Shown here: one piece after another, positions 556 through 63,757 of the stretch | Numbering within the stretch: position 1 is the first letter of the stretch | Layout of the letters: every line of letters starts with the position of its first letter | Source: Shigella phage Sf25 | DNA: 64,000 nt | Sequence record: MF327009 | Strand: one strand, 5' to 3' | Translations under genes and position numbers: made by a program | The notes under the pieces: model-generated | The model's database searches: none | The model's input: the letters and a program-made list of their open reading frames with translations, nothing else | Told to the model about the DNA's origin: nothing

Positions 556-834
556 TCAAAATGTAATTTCTAACCAATCACCATCACGCTGATCACTATT
601 GACTTTAAAGCTGAATCCTTCTTTTCTCAGCCAATCACCAATTTCTTCAGTAATCAATTTATCGCGAGCAGTACAATAATAACTAAAATATGTTTTACCT
701 TGTTCAGCTGCTTTATTAGCAAGTTCTGAAAAATCTTTAATAAAACACTCTAGCTTAAACTGTTTACTTTTTAATGCTTTTTCACGTAATTGATTAGCAA
801 AAGATTCATTTTCATAAAGATCATACTGTTCCAT
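556..834 (-). CDS. hypothetical protein (92 aa), 24.x-like
   Basis: ORF track; tightly packed between rnlB and the next ORF. Confidence 0.5.
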   Translation of the reverse strand: MEQYDLYENESFANQLREKALKSKQFKLECFIKDFSELANKAAEQGKTYFSYYCTARDKLITEEIGDWLRKEGFSFKVNSDQRDGDWLEITF

Positions 835-1036
835 TTTTCACCTTTTTATTGATATGTCTTTTTCTATAGACAACTTTTTCTCGAGTTTCAAATTTATTCT
901 TAGCAGTCATAGCTCGAGCCCATAATACAGCCACTTCTTTCGCCTGTAAGTTTAATTCACGAGCAATTTCAATGAATGACTTTCCAGACTCATGAAGAGT
1001 AAACACCACAACCTCAGTTCTCATAATCAATCTCAT
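821..1036 (-). CDS. hypothetical small protein (71 aa); its 5' end and upstream leader lie inside a 202-bp tandem duplication
   Basis: ORF track; a second copy of its first ~38 codons plus leader is present at 1125-1238. Confidence 0.5.
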   Translation of the reverse strand: MRLIMRTEVVVFTLHESGKSFIEIARELNLQAKEVAVLWARAMTAKNKFETREKVVYRKRHINKKVKNGTV

Positions 1037-1326
1037 GTTATCGAGTTGGTGCCATTATATACATCATTTTCTGATTGTGTTTTGTGTGCTTTCAAAATGA
1101 AGAAAGGGGCCGAAGCCCCTTATGTAATACAGCCACTTCTTTCGCCTGTAAGTTTAATTCACGAGCAATTTCAATGAATGACTTTCCAGACTCATGAAGA
1201 GTAAACACCACAACCTCAGTTCTCATAATCAATCTCATGTTATCGAGTTGGTGCCATTATATACATCATTTTCTGATTGTGTTTTGTGTGCTTTCAAAAT
1301 GAAGAAAGGGGCCGAAGCCCCTTATG
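923..1326. repeat. exact tandem duplication, 2 x 202 bp (923-1124 and 1125-1326)
   Basis: The two units read identically, including the hairpin ggggccgaagcccc and the start codon of the 71-aa ORF. Confidence 0.9.
1090..1119 (-). terminator. rho-independent terminator hairpin (GGGGC-CGAA-GCCCC plus U-run) downstream of hoc; duplicated at 1292-1321
   Basis: GC stem with GNRA-type loop followed on the minus strand by a T-rich run. Confidence 0.55.
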
Positions 1327-9237: not shown

Positions 9238-11006
9238 AAAAGCCACAAGAAATGCAAACGATGCGTAGAAAAGTTATTTCAGATAATAAACCAACACAGG
9301 AAGCGGCTAAATCCGCTTCCAACACTTTATCTGGACTTAACGATATATCTACGAAATTGGATGATGCTCAAGCTGCTTCTGAATTAATAGCTCAAACTGT
9401 CGAAGAAAAATCGAATGAAATAGTTGGAGCAATTGACAACGTAGAAAGCGCAGTGAGTGATACTACCGCAGGTTCTGAGTTAATTGCCGAAACTGTCGAA
9501 ATTGGCAACAATATTAATAAAGAAATCGGTGAATCACTCGGAAGTAAATTAGATAAATTAACAAGTTTACTAGAGCAAAAAATTCAGACAGCCGGAATTC
9601 AACAAACAGGAACTAGTTTAGCCACGGTTGAAAGCGCTATTCCTGTTAAAGTTGTTGAGGACGATACAGCTGAATCCGTTGGTCCTTTATTACCGGCTCC
9701 TGAAGCAGTTAATAATGATCCTGATGCTGATTTTTTCCCTACTCCTCAGCCAGTTGAACCTAAACAAGAATCGCCAGAAGAAAAACAGAAAAAAGACGCA
9801 TTTAATTTAAAATTATCTCAAGCTTTAGATAAATTAACAAAGACTGTTGATTTTGGATTTAAGAAATCCATTTCAATTACTGATAAAATATCAAGCATGT
9901 TATTTAAGTACACCATCAGTGCTGCTATTGAAGCTGCTAAAATGACTGCAATGATATTGGCTGTTGTTGTTGGAATAGACCTGTTGATGGTTCATTTTAA
10001 ATACTGGTCAGATAAATTTTCAAAAGCCTGGGATTTATTTAGTACTGATTTTACTAAATTCTCTAGCGAAACCGGAACATGGGGTCCTTTATTACAGAGC
10101 ATCTTTGATTCTATTGATAAAATTAAACAACTTTGGGAAGCGGGAGATTGGGGTGGATTGACAGCAGCTATCATAGAAGGACTCGGAAGTGTTCTTTTTA
10201 ATTTAGGAGAGCTTATTCAATTAGGTATGGCTAAATTATCTGCTGCAATTCTTCGAGTCATTCCTGGCATGAAAGACACTGCTGATGAAGTAGAAGGAAG
10301 AGCACTGGAAAATTTCCAAAATACTACTGGAGCATCTCTCAATAAAGAAGACCAGGAAAAAGTTGCAAATTATCAGTACAAAAGAATGAATGGAGACCTT
10401 GGCCCGATAGCAAAAGGATTAGATAAAATTGCTAATTGGAAAACTCGTGCATCTAATTGGATTCGTGGAGTTGATAATAAAGAAGCACTAACAACTGATG
10501 AAGAGAGAGCAGAGGAAGAAGAAAAATTAAAGCAGCTTTCTCCAGAGGAAGCTAAAATTGCTTTAATGAAAGCTAATGAAGCTCGTGCTGCTATGAATCG
10601 TTTTGAAAAATATGCCGATTCAGCTGATATGAGTAAAGACTCAACGGTTAAATCAGTTGAATCTGCCTATGAAGACCTTAAAAAACGGATGGATGACCCG
10701 GATTTAAATAATTCACCGGCGGTTAAAAAAGAACTTGCTGCTAGATTTTCTAAAATTGATGCTACTTATCAAGAGCTCAAGAAGAATCAGCCTAATGCCA
10801 AACCTGAAACTTCTGCTAAATCGCCAGAAGCAAAACAAGTCCAGGTAATAGAAAAGAACAAAGCACAGCAAGCTCCTGTTCAACAAGCATCTCCTTCAAT
10901 CAACAATACTAATAATGTTATTAAGAAAAATACTGTCGTTCATAATATGACACCTGTCACAAGCACAACTGCTCCTGGTGTATTTGATGCGACTGGGGTT
11001 AATTAA
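9234..11006 (+). CDS. 29: baseplate hub / tail-length determining protein gp29
   Basis: 590-aa ORF with ATGA overlap to gene 28; length and position as in T4. Confidence 0.85.
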   Translation: MKKPQEMQTMRRKVISDNKPTQEAAKSASNTLSGLNDISTKLDDAQAASELIAQTVEEKSNEIVGAIDNVESAVSDTTAGSELIAETVEIGNNINKEIGESLGSKLDKLTSLLEQKIQTAGIQQTGTSLATVESAIPVKVVEDDTAESVGPLLPAPEAVNNDPDADFFPTPQPVEPKQESPEEKQKKDAFNLKLSQALDKLTKTVDFGFKKSISITDKISSMLFKYTISAAIEAAKMTAMILAVVVGIDLLMVHFKYWSDKFSKAWDLFSTDFTKFSSETGTWGPLLQSIFDSIDKIKQLWEAGDWGGLTAAIIEGLGSVLFNLGELIQLGMAKLSAAILRVIPGMKDTADEVEGRALENFQNTTGASLNKEDQEKVANYQYKRMNGDLGPIAKGLDKIANWKTRASNWIRGVDNKEALTTDEERAEEEEKLKQLSPEEAKIALMKANEARAAMNRFEKYADSADMSKDSTVKSVESAYEDLKKRMDDPDLNNSPAVKKELAARFSKIDATYQELKKNQPNAKPETSAKSPEAKQVQVIEKNKAQQAPVQQASPSINNTNNVIKKNTVVHNMTPVTSTTAPGVFDATGVN

Positions 11007-11014
11007 GGAATAAT

Positions 11015-12109
11015 ATGGCAATTGTTAAAGAAATAACTGCTGATTTAATTAAAAAGTCCGGTGAGAAAATTTCAGCCGGACAGAGTACTAAATCAGAAGT
11101 AGGAACTAAAACATACACAGCCCAGTTTCCAACTGGGCGTGCTAGTGGTAATGACACTACAGGGGACTTCCAGGTAACAGATCTATATAAGAATGGATTA
11201 TTATTTACTGCATACAATATGTCATCTAGGGATTCTGGAAGTCTTAGATCGATGAGATCTAACTACTCTTCTTCATCTTCGAGTATTTTACGTACAGCCA
11301 GAAACACTATCAGTAATACAGTATCAAAACTGTCAAATGGATTAATATCAGATAATAATTCAGGAACAATAAGTAAAGCCCCTGTTGCAAATATTCTTTT
11401 ACCAAGATCTAAATCCGATGTTGATACATCATCACATAGATTTAATGATGTTCAAGAAAGTCTTATCAGCAGAGGAGGAGGTACTGCTACTGGTGTGCTA
11501 AGTAATATTGCTTCAACTGCAGTATTTGGGGCACTGGAAAGTATAACACAAGGTATAATGGCTGATAATAATGAACAGATTTATACGACAGCCAGAAGTA
11601 TGTATGGTGGTGCTGAAAATAGAACTAAAGTGTTTACTTGGGATTTGACTCCACGTTCAACAGAAGATTTAATGGCTATTATTAATATCTATCAATATTT
11701 TAACTATTTTTCTTATGGTGAAACTGGTAAATCTCAATATGCTGCTGAAATAAAGGGGTATTTAGATGATTGGTATCGTTCTACGTTAATTGAACCTTTA
11801 TCTCCGGAAGACGCAGCTAAAAATAAAACACTATTTGAGAAAATGACATCGAGTTTAACTAACGTTCTAGTGGTTTCAAACCCGACAATTTGGATGGTGA
11901 AAAACTTTGGTGCAACATCTAAGTTTGATGGAAAAACGGAAATATTCGGTCCATGTCAAATCCAGAGTATCAGATTTGATAAAACACCTAATGGTAACTT
12001 TAACGGATTAGCTATTGCTCCAAACCTCCCTAGTACATTTACTCTTGAGATTACTATGAGAGAAATTATCACGTTAAACCGTGCTTCTTTATATGCGGGG
12101 ACTTTTTAA
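11015..12109 (+). CDS. 48: baseplate-tail tube junction protein gp48
   Basis: 364-aa ORF, length and position as in T4. Confidence 0.85.
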   Translation: MAIVKEITADLIKKSGEKISAGQSTKSEVGTKTYTAQFPTGRASGNDTTGDFQVTDLYKNGLLFTAYNMSSRDSGSLRSMRSNYSSSSSSILRTARNTISNTVSKLSNGLISDNNSGTISKAPVANILLPRSKSDVDTSSHRFNDVQESLISRGGGTATGVLSNIASTAVFGALESITQGIMADNNEQIYTTARSMYGGAENRTKVFTWDLTPRSTEDLMAIINIYQYFNYFSYGETGKSQYAAEIKGYLDDWYRSTLIEPLSPEDAAKNKTLFEKMTSSLTNVLVVSNPTIWMVKNFGATSKFDGKTEIFGPCQIQSIRFDKTPNGNFNGLAIAPNLPSTFTLEITMREIITLNRASLYAGTF

Positions 12110-22465: not shown

Positions 22466-22807
22466 TTATGCTTTCTGCTTACCAAAACGAGAAGCATCAT
22501 CTCGAAGAACCGCACGTGCTCGGCGCATGATCTTCTCAACAGTTTGATTGATACGAGAGTTCGACCCACGCTTGTAGCCAGCGCGTTTAGAATCACCAAC
22601 TTTCTTTTCAACTGCTTTCTTTGCTTTAGCTTGTTTTTTCTGCTTACCAAAACGAGAAGCATCATCTCGAAGAACCGCACGTGCTCGGCGCATGATCTTC
22701 TCAACAGTTTGATTGATACGAGAGTTCGACCCACGCTTGTAGCCAGCGCGTTTAGAATCACCAACTTTCTTTTCAACTGCTTTCTTTGCTTTAGCTTGTT
22801 TTGCCAT
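22466..22807 (-). CDS. small highly basic protein, expanded from about 58 to 113 aa by an in-frame 165-bp tandem duplication
   Basis: Translation MAKQAKAKKAVEKKVGDSKRAGYKRGSNSRINQTVEKIMRRARAVLRDDASRF with the 55-aa block repeated exactly. Confidence 0.55.
   Translation of the reverse strand: MAKQAKAKKAVEKKVGDSKRAGYKRGSNSRINQTVEKIMRRARAVLRDDASRFGKQKKQAKAKKAVEKKVGDSKRAGYKRGSNSRINQTVEKIMRRARAVLRDDASRFGKQKA
22472..22801. repeat. exact tandem duplication, 2 x 165 bp (22472-22636 and 22637-22801), in-frame
   Basis: Identical nucleotide units; boundary ambiguous by 1 bp. Confidence 0.9.
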
Positions 22808-25485: not shown

Positions 25486-26006
25486 GTTGATCCCAGCTCC
25501 TTACTTTCAACGTTTTTAACTAATTTGACAGAAACTAATTCGGCATCTTGGGTAATCATTACCGGGCCTTCTTCATACTCTTCAAGATATTCTAGAGCTT
25601 TCTTTTTAGCTTCTTCCTTCGTATCAGTTTGAGCATAGATATAGAACATACAACCAGTAATACCTACTACTTTCCACTTAATTTCTTTATCAGTTTTAAT
25701 TTCAAATTTACTGATAGAGTCATCTTTTTGAACTTCTTCGAAAAAATAATATTCTGACATATAAGTAATTGAAAATAACGGGCTATCTTTATAAGATTCG
25801 CCCATTACATCAACAGCTTTATACCAGCAGTCATCAATTTCACGTTTAATGCTAATAACATTTTTCGCAGAATCTATTTTTACTTTAAATGAATTTTCCC
25901 CAATAAACTTGGCAATTCGTTTATTAGCCCCGCAAGTTTCATTAAAAATATCTTTATATCCAGCTTTAAAGCGATAAACCTTATCTTCTTCAAACCATTT
26001 GCTCAT
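25479..26006 (-). CDS. hypothetical protein (175 aa), cd.3-like
   Basis: ORF track. Confidence 0.45.
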   Translation of the reverse strand: MSKWFEEDKVYRFKAGYKDIFNETCGANKRIAKFIGENSFKVKIDSAKNVISIKREIDDCWYKAVDVMGESYKDSPLFSITYMSEYYFFEEVQKDDSISKFEIKTDKEIKWKVVGITGCMFYIYAQTDTKEEAKKKALEYLEEYEEGPVMITQDAELVSVKLVKNVESKELGSTC

Positions 26007-26068
26007 TTCAATTTCCTCATTTGTTTTGGTAGAGCTATAATATCACAACTCTACCGTAAAGTAAACTG

Positions 26069-28196: not shown

Positions 28197-28639
28197 TTAT
28201 CCTCTTTTAACTCTTGACGATAATAACATATCATAGTTTTCTGATCATGTACATATCGTTTTACATCATTAAGCCAAATGCGAAATTCCTGGGAATCTTC
28301 AAATGGCATACCGACCCAAGCTTTACCATCAATAACTTTAACTTGCCAGGATAGTTTAGCTTCATCGTATGACTTTATTTGTACTGGCCAATTAGGATGA
28401 ACTGTTTCTTTCTTTACTTCTAGAGGCTTTGTCGAACAACCAACTAGAAGACCAATAGATAATATTACCCAAGCTTTACCATCAATAACTTTAACTTGCC
28501 AGGATAGTTTAGCTTCATCGTATGACTTTATTTGTACTGGCCAATTAGGATGAACTGTTTCTTTCTTTACTTCTAGAGGCTTTGTCGAACAACCAACTAG
28601 AAGACCAATAGATAATATTACTGCTGATAGTTTAATCAT
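28187..28639 (-). CDS. putative lipoprotein, expanded from about 99 to 150 aa by an in-frame 153-bp tandem duplication
   Basis: Signal/lipobox-like LSIGLLVGC-S; the 51-aa block ILSIGLLVGCSTKPLEVKK...DGKAWV is repeated exactly, giving two lipobox copies. Confidence 0.5.
   Translation of the reverse strand: MIKLSAVILSIGLLVGCSTKPLEVKKETVHPNWPVQIKSYDEAKLSWQVKVIDGKAWVILSIGLLVGCSTKPLEVKKETVHPNWPVQIKSYDEAKLSWQVKVIDGKAWVGMPFEDSQEFRIWLNDVKRYVHDQKTMICYYRQELKEDKCK
28314..28619. repeat. exact tandem duplication, 2 x 153 bp (28314-28466 and 28467-28619), in-frame
   Basis: Identical nucleotide units. Confidence 0.9.
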
Positions 28640-32383: not shown

Positions 32384-34897
32384 TCATAATTTACAGGATG
32401 AACAATCTTCAGCTTTTGGAGTTTCTATTTCATAATCATCAGTACCAGAACCGTCACGGGTATTATGATAATAGAAATTTTTTCCGCCAAAATACCAAAA
32501 ATATAAAAGGTCATCAATCATTATTGACATTGGAACCTTTCCTTTTGGAAAAATCTGCGGGTCATAATATGTATTAGCTGAAGCTGATTGACATACCCAT
32601 TTCAGCATAATAGCTACTTGCGTAAGATAAGGTTTATTGCCTTTCTTAGCTAATTTCCACGTATAATCATAGAGGTCTATGTTATGCTCAATATTGGGCA
32701 CGACTTGATTAAAGGAACCCTCTTTTGATTCTTTAACAGAGACTGGTCCACGTGGAGGCTCGATACCGTTTGTACTGTTAGAAACTTGGGAAGATGACTC
32801 ACATGGCATAAGTGCTGATAATGTGCTATTACGGATGCCAAAGAGCTTAAGGTCTTCCCGCAGCGACGACCAGTCACAAACGTATTTTGGAGCTGCGATT
32901 TGGTCAATCTTTTTATTGTACCAGTCGATAGGTAATTCGCCTCGAGACCAACGAGTGTCTGAATAATATTCGCAAGGTCCTTTTTCTTTGGCGAGCTTAA
33001 TGGATGCTTTAATGAGTCCATACTGTAATCTCTCAAATAGTTCATGTGTTAAATCGTTAGCATCTTCATAAGAAGCAAAATTACTTGCCAGCCAAGCTGC
33101 ATAGTTAGTAACACCTACACCAAGATTTCGACGCTTTTTAGCTTTTTCTGCTTCAGGAACTGGATATCCTTGGTAATCCAAAAGATTATCAAGAGCACGA
33201 ACTTGGACTTCTGCCAATTCATTAATTTTATCTTGGTCTTGCCAATCAAAGTTATCTAACACAAATGCAGATAACGTACACAATCCAATTTCAGCATCAG
33301 GACTATTCACATCATTTGTTGGAATAGCAATTTCACAGCACAAGTTGCTCTGACGAATAGGTGCCTTTTCACGAATAAACGGAGTATAGTTATTCGTATT
33401 ATCTATGAACTGTACATAAATCCTTGCTGTTCCTGAGCGTTCAGTCATGAGCAATTCAAATAGTTCACGGGCTTTAATACGCTTTTTACGAATATTAGGG
33501 TCTTTTTCTGCTGCTTCGTATAATTCACGGAAACGGTCTTGGTCTTTAAAATAAGAATAATAAAGCTCGCCACCCATTTCATGCGGACTGAACAAAGTAA
33601 TGTAATCGTTCTTTCCGAATCGTTCCATCATCAAATCATTCAGCTGAACACCATAATCCATATGACGGATACGGTTTTCTTCTACACCTTTGTTATTTTT
33701 CAAAACGAGAAGATTTTCAACTTCCAAATGCCAAATAGGATAATAAGCAGTAGCAGCGCCGCCACGAATTCCACCCTGTGAGCATGATTTAACAGCAGTC
33801 TGAAAATGTTTCCAAAAAGGAATAACACCAGTATGGCGTACTTCACCTGTGCCAATCTTAGAACCTTCGGCACGAATCATACCAACGTTAATACCAATTC
33901 CATAATCCATATGACGGATACGGTTTTCTTCTACACCTTTGTTATTTTTCAAAACGAGAAGATTTTCAACTTCCAAATGCCAAATAGGATAATAAGCAGT
34001 AGCAGCGCCGCCACGAATTCCACCCTGTGAGCATGATTTAACAGCAGTCTGAAAATGTTTCCAAAAAGGAATAACACCAGTATGGCGTACTTCACCTGTG
34101 CCAATCTTAGAACCTTCGGCACGAATCATACCAACGTTAATACCAATTCCAGCGCGTTTGGAGATATATTCAACAATTGAAGCAGAAGCCTTATTGATAG
34201 ACTTTAATGAATCACCTGCTTCAATAACAACGCATGAACTAAACTGCCGAGTTGGAGTACGGCAACCAGCCATAATAGGAGTTGGCAGTGAAATCTGTCG
34301 AGTAGATACTGCTTCATAAAAACGGATAACGTGTTTTAATCTATCAACAGGTTCATCTTGATGCAATGCCATTCCAATAGTCATAAATGCAAACTGTGGA
34401 GTTTCATAAATTTGACCAGTGGTTTTATCTTTAACTAGATATTTTTCTTTTAATTGCATCGCCCCGGAATAAGTAAATTCCATATCCCGCTCGTGCTTAA
34501 TTTTTGATTCTAAAAATGTAATTTCTTCGGCAGAATATTTTGACAACAATTCAGGGTCATATTTACCTTCATTTACACAGTAAGAAATGTGGTCAATAAA
34601 TGAACGTGGTTCATACTGCCCATAAACATGCTTACGAAGAGCGAACATTAAACAGCGTGCAGCTACATATTGATAATCAGGCTCTTCAACTGAAATAGAA
34701 TTCGCAGCAGCCTTAATTACAATGGTTTGAATGTCATCAGTTGTCATTCCATCACGGAGATATGATTTAATATTTTCATATAATTCATAAGGATCTACAG
34801 ATGTTCCTTCAGCTGCCCAAGATAAAACTTTAATAATTTTTTGCGGGTCAAAGCTCTGAGAAACACCACTACTTTTGATAACATTAATTAATTGCAT
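32384..34897 (-). CDS. nrdA: ribonucleotide reductase large subunit carrying an in-frame 249-bp tandem duplication (837 aa versus 754 aa expected)
   Basis: MQLINVIKSSGVSQSFDPQKI...; 83-aa block GIGINVGMIRAEGSKIG...NRIRHMDY repeated exactly. Confidence 0.9.
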   Translation of the reverse strand: MQLINVIKSSGVSQSFDPQKIIKVLSWAAEGTSVDPYELYENIKSYLRDGMTTDDIQTIVIKAAANSISVEEPDYQYVAARCLMFALRKHVYGQYEPRSFIDHISYCVNEGKYDPELLSKYSAEEITFLESKIKHERDMEFTYSGAMQLKEKYLVKDKTTGQIYETPQFAFMTIGMALHQDEPVDRLKHVIRFYEAVSTRQISLPTPIMAGCRTPTRQFSSCVVIEAGDSLKSINKASASIVEYISKRAGIGINVGMIRAEGSKIGTGEVRHTGVIPFWKHFQTAVKSCSQGGIRGGAATAYYPIWHLEVENLLVLKNNKGVEENRIRHMDYGIGINVGMIRAEGSKIGTGEVRHTGVIPFWKHFQTAVKSCSQGGIRGGAATAYYPIWHLEVENLLVLKNNKGVEENRIRHMDYGVQLNDLMMERFGKNDYITLFSPHEMGGELYYSYFKDQDRFRELYEAAEKDPNIRKKRIKARELFELLMTERSGTARIYVQFIDNTNNYTPFIREKAPIRQSNLCCEIAIPTNDVNSPDAEIGLCTLSAFVLDNFDWQDQDKINELAEVQVRALDNLLDYQGYPVPEAEKAKKRRNLGVGVTNYAAWLASNFASYEDANDLTHELFERLQYGLIKASIKLAKEKGPCEYYSDTRWSRGELPIDWYNKKIDQIAAPKYVCDWSSLREDLKLFGIRNSTLSALMPCESSSQVSNSTNGIEPPRGPVSVKESKEGSFNQVVPNIEHNIDLYDYTWKLAKKGNKPYLTQVAIMLKWVCQSASANTYYDPQIFPKGKVPMSIMIDDLLYFWYFGGKNFYYHNTRDGSGTDDYEIETPKAEDCSSCKL
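33651..34148. repeat. exact tandem duplication, 2 x 249 bp (33651-33899 and 33900-34148), in-frame within nrdA
   Basis: Identical nucleotide units; boundary ambiguous by 3 bp. Confidence 0.9.
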
Positions 34898-34915: not shown

Positions 34916-35271
34916 TCGTCTTTAAACAATCGGTTAACTATATGAGCTATTATATCACCATGACACGGCTTTGGTTTACATGTGCATCCTAGCCTCATTC
35001 CACGTAAAGGCTCTAAATGTGCTTTAGTTATTTCTCCGGATTTAATTCGACGTATAAAATCTTTTTTGAATAATTCAATGGCAGCCTCCCGGCTCGTCTT
35101 TAAACAATCGGTTAACTATATGAGCTATTATATCACCATGACACGGCTTTGGTTTACATGTGCATCCTAGCCTCATTCCACGTAAAGGCTCTAAATGTGC
35201 TTTAGTTATTTCTCCGGATTTAATTCGACGTATAAAATCTTTTTTGAATAATTCAATGGCAGCCTCCCGGC
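34916..35271. repeat. exact tandem duplication, 2 x 178 bp (34916-35093 and 35094-35271), just upstream of the nrdA start
   Basis: Identical units; unit length not a multiple of 3; replaces the 3' end of the upstream ORF. Confidence 0.9.
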
Positions 35272-35392
35272 TGCCAGCATCTTTACCGACGTAATTTCCC
35301 CAAAATGTACCACGGTGAATATTAACATCAAAGTCGGATTTATATTTATTCACTACCCGGCATAGACGGCCCGCGCGGTTGTAGGTGTTCAT
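35075..35392 (-). CDS. hypothetical protein (nrdA.1-like); C-terminus altered by the 178-bp duplication
   Basis: ORF track; without the second copy the frame would end ...NRLFKDDFQVEDLCN overlapping the nrdA ATG. Confidence 0.45.
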
Positions 35393-38440: not shown

Positions 38441-38887
38441 CTACTTTTTGAAAGTTTTTCGCAAAAGTTCAATGATTTCATCTACATTGTTTTCGTCAAC
38501 AATGCAGTGAATTTTTGTTACGCCAGAAACCTTGTCTATGACTTCATCTACATTGTTTTCGTCAACAATGCAGTGAATTTTTGTTACGCCAGAAACCTTG
38601 TCTTTGACTTCATCTTCTTCAGAAGTCGGTTCTTTATACTCACGAAAACAATGAAATTCATCTTCGCAAATTTCTAAAAGTCTATCTTTGAGGTAAAAAT
38701 GCTTTCCATTTGCGCATTCAATGTGTTTTACTGCTTTATATCCATTAGCGACGGAAACTTCTTTAACTTCAAACCATCCGCCATTATCTCGAATAGCTTT
38801 AACGATTGATGAATTAGAACGTGGGCTATAATTAATAAATGTATCAATAAGTCTTGGAACAAGTTCATACTTTTTGCCAATATACAT
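38441..38887 (-). CDS. hypothetical protein (148 aa) with an internal 22-aa tandem repeat
   Basis: ORF track; ...VKDKVSGVTKIHCIVDENNVDE VIDKVSGVTKIHCIVDENNVDE.... Confidence 0.45.
   Translation of the reverse strand: MYIGKKYELVPRLIDTFINYSPRSNSSIVKAIRDNGGWFEVKEVSVANGYKAVKHIECANGKHFYLKDRLLEICEDEFHCFREYKEPTSEEDEVKDKVSGVTKIHCIVDENNVDEVIDKVSGVTKIHCIVDENNVDEIIELLRKTFKK
38472..38615. repeat. near-exact tandem repeat, 66-bp unit, about 2.2 copies, 2 mismatches
   Basis: Position i matches i+66 across 38472-38549 except at 38476 and 38538. Confidence 0.8.
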
Positions 38888-40212: not shown

Positions 40213-40310
40213 TTTTATTTCCTTTTTAATTTAATTAACAGTTGGTGCTATGACGATGTATGACCTCATAGCTGGTCAGTGAGATAATTATAATCTATTT
40301 ATAATAAGCA
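40213..40310 (-). promoter_or_regulatory. gene 32 5' leader: AU-rich translational operator (UUAAAUUAAAAAGGAAAUAAAA-AUG) and a TATAAATA late-promoter match at 40296-40303
   Basis: Sequence read directly; gp32 autoregulation through such an operator is established for T4. Confidence 0.5.
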
Positions 40311-51800: not shown

Positions 51801-52498
51801 ATGGCAATTGTAGGTGTTCCTGGCTGGATTGGTGAATCTGCCGTGAATGAAACAGGACAGCGTTGGATGGATGCTGCAATGAGAGCAGTCCGTGTTTCAG
51901 TTCCCGGTTGGATGAGCTCAATGGCCGGACAATCTAAAGAAGTATATTATAGCATTGGTGCTAGTAATTCTTATAATAAAGATACATTAATAAACTGAAT
52001 GCATACGTGACACTTAATATCAATTCAGGCGTGCATGTTTGGGGCCGTGGCGGGAATGGCGGAAATAACTCTGCCGGTGGAGCAGGAGGAACTGCAATAA
52101 ATAATGGAATTGGAACTAGATTGCGTATTAACAACAATGGTGTTATCGCAGGAGGCGGTGGCGGCGGTGGAGGCGGATATTATTCTCCTTTTTCACAAAT
52201 GAAATTGACTTTTGGCGGTGGCGGCGGTCGTCCATTTGGTGCTGCTGGCGGGTCTGCTAATATGGAACAGGGCGCTACTGCTGGTACTATTTCTGCACCT
52301 GGTAAAGGGTCTGTCAATGGTATCTATAATGGCGGGAATGGCGGTGATGCTGGTGCCGCAGGTGGTAAATGTAATATTCGTGGGCAAGGATCAGAATATA
52401 ACGGCGGTGCGGCCGGTAAAGCTGTTACTGGTAATGCTCCAACTTGGACTAAGGTTGGTACAATATATGGCCCTCTGATATTCTATTTGGTGTTCTAG
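51801..52498 (+). CDS. 38: gp38 receptor-recognising adhesin (T2-type, glycine-rich islands); split by a frameshift near 51980-51996
   Basis: ORF 51801-51998 (MAIVGVPGWIGESAVNETGQRWM...) and ORF 52007-52498 in another frame with GGGGGGGGG islands; the second frame is open back to 51980. Confidence 0.75.
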
Positions 52499-57620: not shown

Positions 57621-57680
57621 CTAAAGCTTGAAATTATTACGATAGAACTGCATCACATGTTCGTTATGGAAATTACTCAT
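57621..57680 (-). CDS. stp: Stp-like peptide (19 aa; T4 Stp is 26 aa)
   Basis: Manual translation [19 protein letters not shown]; first 16 residues match recalled T4 Stp. Confidence 0.4.
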   Translation of the reverse strand: MSNFHNEHVMQFYRNNFKL

Positions 57681-59857: not shown

Positions 59858-60119
59858 TTAGACTTTCCTTTTTACCGCTGAGATAAGCGTTATACACTTT
59901 AAGAGTACCGTAGTAAATTCGGTCATTTTCATCTAAAGACACACGGTCAAGTTCATCAAGTTCCTTTTTATCCATGACTATAACATCATTGCAATAAAGA
60001 AACCCAAGTTTTTCGTGACCAAACTCAAATTTATTACAGTACACAATATTAGCGTGATGATTTCCGTGCAGTTTAATCTCTTTTATGTCGGAATCACCGA
60101 TATTCATACAATAAATCAT
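59790..60119 (-). CDS. hypothetical protein (109 aa); overlaps the denB start by 68 nt
   Basis: ORF track; the long overlap is atypical and makes the 3' boundary uncertain. Confidence 0.4.
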   Translation of the reverse strand: MIYCMNIGDSDIKEIKLHGNHHANIVYCNKFEFGHEKLGFLYCNDVIVMDKKELDELDRVSLDENDRIYYGTLKVYNAYLSGKKESLNAENESGFTETISDSDIYPIEQ

Positions 60120-60137
60120 AATTTTTCCTTAAAACAA

Positions 60138-60153
60138 AAGGGCCGAAGCCCTT
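60138..60153. terminator. hairpin (AAGGGCC-GAAG-CCCTT) with flanking T-runs on both strands
   Basis: Stem-loop between two minus-strand ORFs. Confidence 0.4.
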
Positions 60154-60157
60154 TATT

Positions 60158-60352
60158 TTACTTGAATTGTGCAATTCTTTTCTCTAGACATTCAGCATAA
60201 GATTTCATTGAGATGAACTGTGAAAGCAGCAGTTCTTGCTCAACTGCACTAACCGTTAGAAACTTTGTGCTTTCTAAAAATTTGCTCAGTGCATTAATTT
60301 TGAGCATTAATTGATCGTATTCTTCTTTTACTCGTGCTTGATAACCTAACAT
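60158..60352 (-). CDS. hypothetical protein (64 aa), rIIB.1-like
   Basis: ORF track. Confidence 0.45.
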   Translation of the reverse strand: MLGYQARVKEEYDQLMLKINALSKFLESTKFLTVSAVEQELLLSQFISMKSYAECLEKRIAQFK

Positions 60353-61330: not shown

Positions 61331-63757
61331 TTAGGCCGCAAGGGCCTTCATAGTTTTAGCGATTTGAGAAACTTCATCATCACTTAAAGAGTTGCGATAA
61401 CCGATGAAGTCGGAAACAATACGGAATTTCTTGGTAAACTCAGCAACCATTTTATCACTGTTTTTTGAAGCATTATTTGATAATACATCAAAAAGATTAG
61501 TTACTGTCCAGATGTCATGACCGATGGTACCTTTTCCACCGTTGAAATATACGCCCCGCAATGAACTAACTATATTAGCGAGTCGTGTATATTCTTCAGA
61601 AACTTCATCTGTACTGAAGTACTTCATCATAAAATCTAGTTCAGGATACTTGATAATTTTATCAATATATCGTTGAGCTGAACTTGAATAACCTACGTAC
61701 TTATCATAATCTACATCATCAAAAGCATCTACATATAAATCACGCAGAGTTTCAAAAATACATTGGCACTGACCGAGTTCTTTTACCTTTTTCTGCAAAA
61801 GCGGACGAATAACATAAAATTCATTAATGCCAATAAGATTAGCCATACGAATCAAAATATTCATAGATGGATGACAAAGAGATGTAGTACCATCCATAGA
61901 GAAAATATCAGAACGATGCATATACGCTACATAACCAGTAATTTCATCTGCTTCTGATGTGAGCGTAAACAGTTCCTCTTTTTCCCATCGCCCATCTTTA
62001 ATTTCAAACTTAAATGCTGTAGCAGCTTTAGGACGAGGAGCTTTACTTTTAACTACCTTTGGAATATAGCTTTTAACTAAAGCTTCAATTTCTGACAAAT
62101 AATGAATGTTAACTTCATCACTTTCAAACATCGCCATAATATCAGGAAGTAAATCAATCTGCGATTCTACTTCTGGATTAATAAACAGAAGACGCTCATT
62201 GTGATGAATATTCAAAGTGTTATTAAATTCACTATCATCTAACGCATGTGCTAATCCACGAACAATATTAACACGATTTTTAATATTATCAATAACGATA
62301 TTAATTTTTGTTGTATTAATACCAAACAGACGATAACTTGATGCAACGGCTGAAGTTTCATGACTTTGCTTAATGCGTTTCAGTCGAGGGTCAAGATTTA
62401 CTTCATACACAACTCCTGCATTGCATAACTTACTGTCAGGTTCAAACATGCTCTGCATCTTTTTATATGACAGATTTTTAGTCGTGAATTTGACTGAATT
62501 ACTAATCATATAATCTCGAGCAGAATATCCCATCTTCATCAATTCACGATATGTGTGACGAGGAGATGTAGATTCTTTAAATCGTTTTACATCTTCATTG
62601 AATGCCTTCTCACTAAGCTCTTTAACACGCTCAATAATATTTTTACGAGTACGATCATCTAGTGAAAGAGCTTCGCGTGATGGAGCAATATCAAGTGAAC
62701 CCATTGGAAACTTAATGTAATTCACTTCATTGCGAATGCTTAGCCAGTTACGGTCTCTAATAACACCATCGATAGGATAAACAATACCGCCATAGATAGC
62801 ATATAATCCACCACGATCAGGCCAGTATCTTTCTGGATTTACACCATAATAATCATCAAAATCAGGAAAATAATCAATTTCAATAATATTTTTACGAGTA
62901 CGATCATCTAGTGAAAGAGCTTCGCGTGATGGAGCAATATCAAGTGAACCCATTGGAAACTTAATGTAATTCACTTCATTGCGAATGCTTAGCCAGTTAC
63001 GGTCTCTAATAACACCATCGATAGGATAAACAATACCGCCATAGATAGCATATAATCCACCACGATCAGGCCAGTATCTTTCTGGATTTACACCATAATA
63101 ATCATCAAAATCAGGAAAATAATCAATTTCGCGGTCAAGACCATTAATGATAGCCAAATCTTTGAACGGTCGCATGATATAAGAAACTTCATAAGCAAAG
63201 TTTCTAAAGTCTTTTTCTTCAACTGGAACTACGATTTCAATACCAGTTTTATCATCTGGACCCATTTCTTTTACGAATGTAGGTTTAATCTGTGGGCCAT
63301 CACCATCCATGTAAGCTACATAACCACGAATTTCACCTTTATGATACGAAGTAATACTAAACGTATCAGTATAACTAAACGGAGATTTAGAACCTAAACC
63401 AAATCCGCCAATAAAGTCATTAGATTCAGCCTTAGATGAACTGAAGTATGAATTATACAGCCCAGGAGAATTATCATCACCCTGAATATCAAAATCACTC
63501 ATACCCGGACCAAAATCTCGACAAACAAATCGTGGATCTAATCGTCCTGGAACTTGAATGATAAATTTTTCAGGATTTCCATTAAGTGCATGAGCATCAA
63601 TCATGTTAGTAATCAATTCACGGACTACTGCGCGAATCTTGTTTGTATACAAATCAGATGACAGAATTTTAAATACTTTAGGATTTGCTGCGATGCTAAA
63701 TGCTTTTGATTTAGAACCATTGCCAAGAATTGTTTCTTTTTCAGTGGTGATAATCAT
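61331..63757 (-). CDS. rIIA: rIIA protein carrying an in-frame 249-bp tandem duplication (808 aa versus 725 aa expected)
   Basis: [20 protein letters not shown]...; 83-aa block [24 protein letters not shown]...TRKNIIE repeated exactly. Confidence 0.9.
62631..63128. repeat. exact tandem duplication, 2 x 249 bp (62631-62879 and 62880-63128), in-frame within rIIA
   Basis: Identical nucleotide units. Confidence 0.9.

Follow-up and report, generated by a model that had tools for sequence, protein, structure and literature searches.

The duplicated DNA lies in the hoc region of a T4-like phage, in a window (the whole 64,000-nucleotide stretch of record MF327009 analyzed here) that belongs to Tequatrovirus. 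On the minus strand the genes run in the order rnlB (to 546), 24.2 (556-834), 24.3 (821-1036), hoc (from 1328) and inh (to 3015), with uvsW following inh on the plus strand, so that the rnlB-hoc setting assumed in the first-pass annotation is the one found. This order, rnlB-24.2-24.3-hoc-inh-uvsW, is conserved in relatives. The product of 24.3 matches PF11242 across the entire profile (positions 1-63 of 63; 3.9e-31; 107.5 bits, with the cut-off at 29.2), which places it in that family, and it also has a weak resemblance to GerE-type helix-turn-helix proteins. Homologues of 24.3 have been annotated by others from an internal ATG, giving products of 55-67 aa. The features discussed below are collected in Table 1.

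Between 24.3 and hoc, TRF reports a period of 202 bp with 2.0 copies, 100% matches and 0 indels at 923-1326, and a base-by-base check gives 923-1124 identical to 1125-1326, head to tail, with a run length of exactly 202. The self-match ends precisely at the unit borders, leaving 0 bp of microhomology at the junction, where G meets T at 1124/1125. Chance cannot account for an exact adjacent repeat of 202 bases. The unit holds no complete gene, only codons 1-38 of 24.3 with a leader and a terminator; read on the minus strand, each copy consists of AAGGGGCUUCGGCCCCUU then UCUUCAUUUU (the hairpin and its U-rich tail), a leader of ~65 nt and 24.3 codons 1-38. The local genes are undamaged by the repeat, as hoc keeps its terminator (from copy 2) and 24.3 keeps its own leader (from copy 1).

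The hairpin, AAGGGGCTTCGGCCCCTT followed by the tail TCTTCATTTT, would form a stem of 7 pairs, 5 of them G-C, closed by a UUCG loop. Its G+C-rich stem, short loop, U-rich tail and position just past a stop codon are those of an intrinsic terminator, and it is predicted to be one. The scan for terminator-like sites gives 4 in the repeat, each of the two hairpins being found in two registers, where shuffled sequence would give 0.1; the fold of hairpin copy 1 is calculated at -13.9 kcal/mol, with a shuffle z-score of only -1.43. In phage GiZh, the homologous hairpin is annotated as a rho-independent terminator, predicted by three methods. Promoter searches of the 202-bp unit returned only weak sigma-70-like matches, 5 against 2.7 +/- 1.6 in shuffles, which is not above expectation.

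The description of the locus in the first-pass annotation thus holds at each point. The exact 202-bp tandem duplication is confirmed by TRF and by base-by-base identity, and its contents (the start of 24.3, the first 38 codons, the leader and the terminator hairpin) by the open reading frames, the PF11242 match and the terminator scan. Two predicted terminators do lie in series, at 1121-1104 and 1323-1306 on the minus strand, and a truncated second ORF start does read into the hairpin. This fragment, 24.3', spans only positions 1-34 of the PF11242 profile, and no record of its 48-aa product was found in public assemblies. The underlying DNA is nothing new: in T4-like phages this stretch, with the hoc terminator and the start of 24.3, is well known.

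Table 1. Features of the repeat and private lesions of the window (positions in the window; a slash marks the joint between two adjacent bases)
Feature	Position	Strand	Remarks
Gene 24.3, intact, 71 aa; DUF2774, small winged-helix/GerE-like protein	821..1036	-	PF11242
Copy 1 of the 202-bp unit	923..1124		Adjoins intact 24.3: codons 1-38, leader, terminator hairpin copy 1
24.3', truncated duplicate ORF, 48 aa	1092..1238	-	38 native codons, then 10 across the junction into hairpin copy 1
Predicted intrinsic-terminator hairpin, extra copy 1	1104..1121	-	GGGGC-UUCG-GCCCC stem-loop with U-rich tail; after the 24.3' stop
Junction letters	1124/1125		CCCCTTATG / TAATACAGCC
Copy 2 of the 202-bp unit	1125..1326		Adjoins hoc stop codon: native-position hairpin and 24.3' fragment
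Predicted intrinsic-terminator hairpin, native copy 2 (hoc terminator)	1306..1323	-	5 nt past the hoc stop codon
hoc without start codon and first 21 codons	1328..2395	-	Private 133-bp deletion at 2395/2396
165-bp x2 duplication, nearly all of gene 30.9	22472..22802		Exact; junction microhomology 1 bp
72-bp deletion	23431/23432		Last 10 codons and stop of gene 31 gone
153-bp x2 duplication inside pseT.2, in frame	28314..28621		Exact; microhomology 2 bp
249-bp x2 duplication inside nrdA, in frame	33651..34151		Exact; microhomology 3 bp
178-bp x2 duplication inside nrdA.1, frameshift	34916..35272		Exact; microhomology 1 bp
173-bp deletion	40809/40810		gp59 codons 1-52 and gp33 C-terminus and stop gone
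173-bp deletion inside gene 37, frameshift	50146/50147		Alignment to relatives
70-bp deletion inside gene 37, second frameshift	50606/50607		gp37 split into three ORFs
~103-bp loss inside gene 38, frameshift	51997..52002		Alignment to relatives
72-bp deletion	52470/52471		gp38 stop and holin t start and first 9 codons gone
~136-bp loss	57630..57633		ac start and first 32 codons gone
130-bp deletion	58625/58626		ndd.2a start and ndd.4 stop gone
249-bp x2 duplication inside rIIA, in frame	62631..63130		Exact; microhomology 2 bp

Comparison of the rnlB-hoc interval with related phages, proposed in the first-pass annotation as a check, gives a single copy in every relative examined. BLAST of the 202-bp unit against 23 related loci found one match in each of the 23, at 97-100% identity, with six loci identical to the unit. 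The interval 500-1900 (1,401 bases) matches 685 phage records, and the best 40 of these 685 span it in ~1,199-1,204 bases, in two pieces, and so hold one copy. The spacing from the hoc stop to the 24.3 start is ~100 bp in 20 contigs, 10 with an identical UvsW and 10 with an identical gp24.2. The junction itself was searched as a 40-mer of 20 + 20 bases across the joint, a design in which neither half alone can seed a match, and found no match in 50,697 phage records; a junction 30-mer had no match in IMG/VR, GTDB (one genome per species) or JGI metagenome contigs. The 202-bp duplication is private to the MF327009 stretch.

The genome that carries the repeat is of an ordinary kind. Over the whole window the closest record is that of Shigella phage Sf24, at 97.6-97.8% identity. 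We considered whether the window could be Sf24 with uniform synthetic point mutations and rejected this, as identity is mosaic, ranging from 88.8% to 99.7% per block, like that among natural T4-like phages. Its backbone is that of a real genome, with a mosaic, natural-looking pattern of substitutions relative to Sf24 and with 75 of the 96 Sf24 genes intact, each at full length in one frame. The remaining exceptions outside the events of Table 1 are natural gene-content differences and two single-base homopolymer losses. The latter, at ~19450 and ~19825 (T6 to T5 and A6 to A5 relative to Sf24 and A2), frameshift 30.1 and 30.2, and they could be sequencing errors or natural pseudogenization.

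Natural mosaicism can be seen at several places. At 25490-26011, a 175-aa ORF is common to the window and Shigella phage A2 and absent from Sf24, and at 40276-40310 the window lacks segG, the homing-endonuclease gene that lies between genes 32 and 59 in Sf24. Between relatives, hoc varies in length by whole Ig-like domains (281, 376, ~472 and 568 aa). That of the window is of the 376-aa type but divergent, at 91% to Sf24 and at best ~96-97% to other loci, and a 40-mer from it was absent from IMG/VR. Likewise, no record was found of the intact 1,289-aa gp34 of the window. A natural repeat family, such as the Ig-domain repeats of hoc, was considered as a source of the 202-bp repeat and rejected; those repeats, found within long hoc alleles, have a length of 288 bp and an identity of ~77%, and are unrelated to it.

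The 202-bp repeat is not alone. TRF finds six exact two-copy duplications in the 64 kb, this one included, with 100% identity between the copies in all, and all six regions are single-copy in phages A2 and Sf24. The background is one exact tandem duplication in ~350 kb of relatives' sequence, against six in the 64-kb window. The duplication in nrdA would lengthen NrdA to 837 aa from 754, and no record of an 837-aa product was found. That one duplication among relatives is in the Sf24 RefSeq record, of 265 bp x2 with 0 bp of junction homology (NC_042078.1, ~92,090-92,619; 10591-11120 in the locus compared), annotated as two similar genes, gp121 and gp122; the window is single-copy there (~59977-60240). 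That duplication may be an assembly artefact in the deposited record. In the frd.2 region (38472-38615), the window has a 66-bp tandem repeat of 2.2 copies at 97% identity, with one 66-bp (22-codon, in-frame) copy more than A2 or Sf24. This repeat may be natural, its copies being inexact, unlike those of the six exact duplications.

Alongside the duplications, the window has nine private, clean deletions, of 70-173 bp each, whose flanks match Sf24 and A2 up to the cut. The one nearest the repeat removes, besides the start of hoc, the stop and last 20 codons of inh, and its 133 bp are kept in 12 of 12 relatives compared (Sf24, A2 and ten UvsW loci). We tested 14 junctions (six duplications and eight deletions, the ninth deletion having been found later) as 40-mers, none of which was present in 50,697 phage records, while a control 40-mer in the same search matched 236 records; all matches sampled were to the control, and none of the records matched at more than one place. 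Translocation of the missing segments was also considered and rejected: no other part of the window holds any of them, and only 2 of the window's bases lack a counterpart in relatives, with no foreign insert.

The numbered genes of T4 were defined by conditional-lethal mutants, and genes 31, 33, 37, 38 and t are needed for plaques. Conditional-lethal genes make up 36.5% of the interval and are touched by 6 of the 14 events, which indicates no avoidance (P(<=obs)=0.73). Lesions that fall at a random rate in genes needed for growth could not be carried by a replicating phage, and we infer that the genome as written would be non-viable and could not grow. The deletions are enriched at the ends of coding sequences (5 of 8, P=0.016), which a purely random process does not predict. 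Among the event lengths, 249, 173 and 72 each occur twice (P ~0.007 if lengths are uniform), a recurrence that suggests a mechanical process. Together, the recurring lengths and the enrichment of deletions at coding-sequence ends hint at a non-biological generator.

The first-pass annotation had implicitly treated the duplication as a genuine phage feature, and this premise finds no support in single-copy relatives and in a window with ~15 private lesions, several of them in essential genes. If real nonetheless, the repeat would have to have arisen very recently in a wild T4-like phage, in the spacer between hoc and 24.3, through illegitimate (homology-independent) joining or through replication template switching. 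It would be selectively near-neutral, the efficient homologous recombination of T4 would not yet have resolved it, and the deletions elsewhere would be sequence errors of separate origin. We regard this as improbable, although several observations speak for it. The duplication leaves hoc, the terminator, 24.3 and the leader intact, and T4 readily makes tandem amplifications (PMC9391042). Events in essential genes are all deletions, with none of the six duplications among them (~5% by chance), and four of the six duplications have lengths divisible by three. Junction microhomology is 0, 1, 2, 3, 1 and 2 bp in the six duplications and 0-2 bp in the deletions, with a random mean of 0.76; the sum over the duplications, 9 against 4.6 expected, is slightly raised, within what random junctions would give (P=0.076). 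As the six duplications spare essential genes, we keep a small probability that they form a separate, real class.

Weighing against a real duplication is the junction itself, which is absent from relatives and public contigs. Direct repeats of 150-250 bp are unstable in T4, given its recombination, and here there are six independent exact repeats with zero divergence, each of which would have to be very recent. The unit includes no complete gene for amplification to favor, and the window around it has nine deletions, just as clean, that no viable phage could carry. Its 0 bp of microhomology also contrasts with the 6-10 bp of real T4 events (PMC9391042).

A second way to accept the repeat is to accept every lesion with it, as the record of a defective, non-propagating T4-like genome (from a metagenome, for example, or a damaged or mutagenized molecule) that underwent a burst of short homology-independent events. 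The 15 events do share one style, being clean, 70-250 bp long and with little or no microhomology, and the natural divergence of the backbone and the two single-base homopolymer losses would fit such a molecule. However, at least four independently lethal lesions (gp33, gp37, gp38 and t) would bar replication to consensus-level abundance, no process is known to produce such a burst, and the lesion-specific proteins and junctions are in none of the public collections searched. We consider this reading very improbable, still more so than a real duplication among sequence errors.

The repeat is, very probably, an artefact of sequence construction, through untrimmed or abutted assembly joins or through in-silico editing. 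It is private, its copies are base-identical, and the lesions that accompany it share its style and could not be reconciled with function. The joints of duplications and deletions, with 0-3 bp of homology, resemble those that random cutting would give. As the genome would not be viable as written, the lesions, the 202-bp repeat included, would not have been present in the phage. The underlying DNA would be the ordinary hoc-24.3 intergenic region of a T4-like phage nearest Sf24, written twice. If pieces were joined end to end, untrimmed overlaps would leave duplications and unfilled gaps would leave deletions; deliberate or accidental in-silico editing is an alternative process that would give the same pattern. 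Between the two we lean toward editing, since the rest of the sequence is clean, the size ranges are narrow and event lengths recur. Several observations run counter to an artefact: the 202-bp duplication breaks nothing locally and would be tolerated by the phage, the six duplications spare essential genes, the backbone looks natural, deletions are enriched at gene ends, and exact repeats do occur in curated records, as in the 265 bp of Sf24, whether real or not.

The outcome is a quality-control warning, as the window is untrustworthy at the structural level. A finding in it that depends on a repeat, on an ORF that is truncated or fused, on an absent start or stop, or on unusual spacing should be compared with the 15 private lesions before it is interpreted, for example at hoc/inh, 31, 33/59, 37, 38/t, ac, ndd.2a/ndd.4, nrdA, nrdA.1, rIIA, 30.9 and pseT.2. 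A real repeat would amount to a minor structural polymorphism, near-neutral, that involves no new mechanism and adds only a second terminator and a 48-aa fragment. Were the six duplications a real class, they would suggest that an unusually active process of duplication, independent of microhomology, is at work in the phage.

Three known systems offer a comparison. With the hoc-24.3 intergenic region of T4-like phages, the unit shares 97-100% identity in 23 relatives; the difference is in number and spacing, as relatives have one copy and ~100 bp between hoc and 24.3, whereas the window has two copies and ~300 bp. With the segmental amplification of dmd-tifA in T4 (Srikant, Guegler and Laub 2022, PMC9391042), it shares a head-to-tail repeat in a T4-type phage and deletions elsewhere. 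In experimentally evolved T4, the joints of tandem amplifications and of deletions lie at microhomologies, typically of 6-10 bp, whereas here there are 0 bp at the 202-bp junction and 0-3 bp across the six. The amplified segments of T4 carry the whole selected gene with its promoter, often in more than two copies (PMC9391042), whereas the present unit holds only 38 codons of a gene and occurs in exactly two. The compensating deletions in viable evolved T4 clones are of 0.7-6 kb and all in genes non-essential on the laboratory host (PMC9391042), whereas those of the window, at 70-173 bp, break gp31, gp33, gp59, gp37, gp38 and t.

The third comparison is with artefacts of assembly and finishing; regions written twice and frameshift errors are among the faults commonly met in phage assemblies (Phage Annotation Guide, PMC8785237). 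Shared with these are base-perfect duplications of about read or overlap length that are found in one record only and lie beside gene-breaking errors. The exact 265-bp duplication of the Sf24 record, without junction homology, resembles those of the window. The usual assembly artefact, however, is one duplication per genome, at the circularization point, whereas the window has six duplications and nine deletions and is otherwise clean, so that multiple abutted pieces or in-silico editing fits better than a single circularization overlap.
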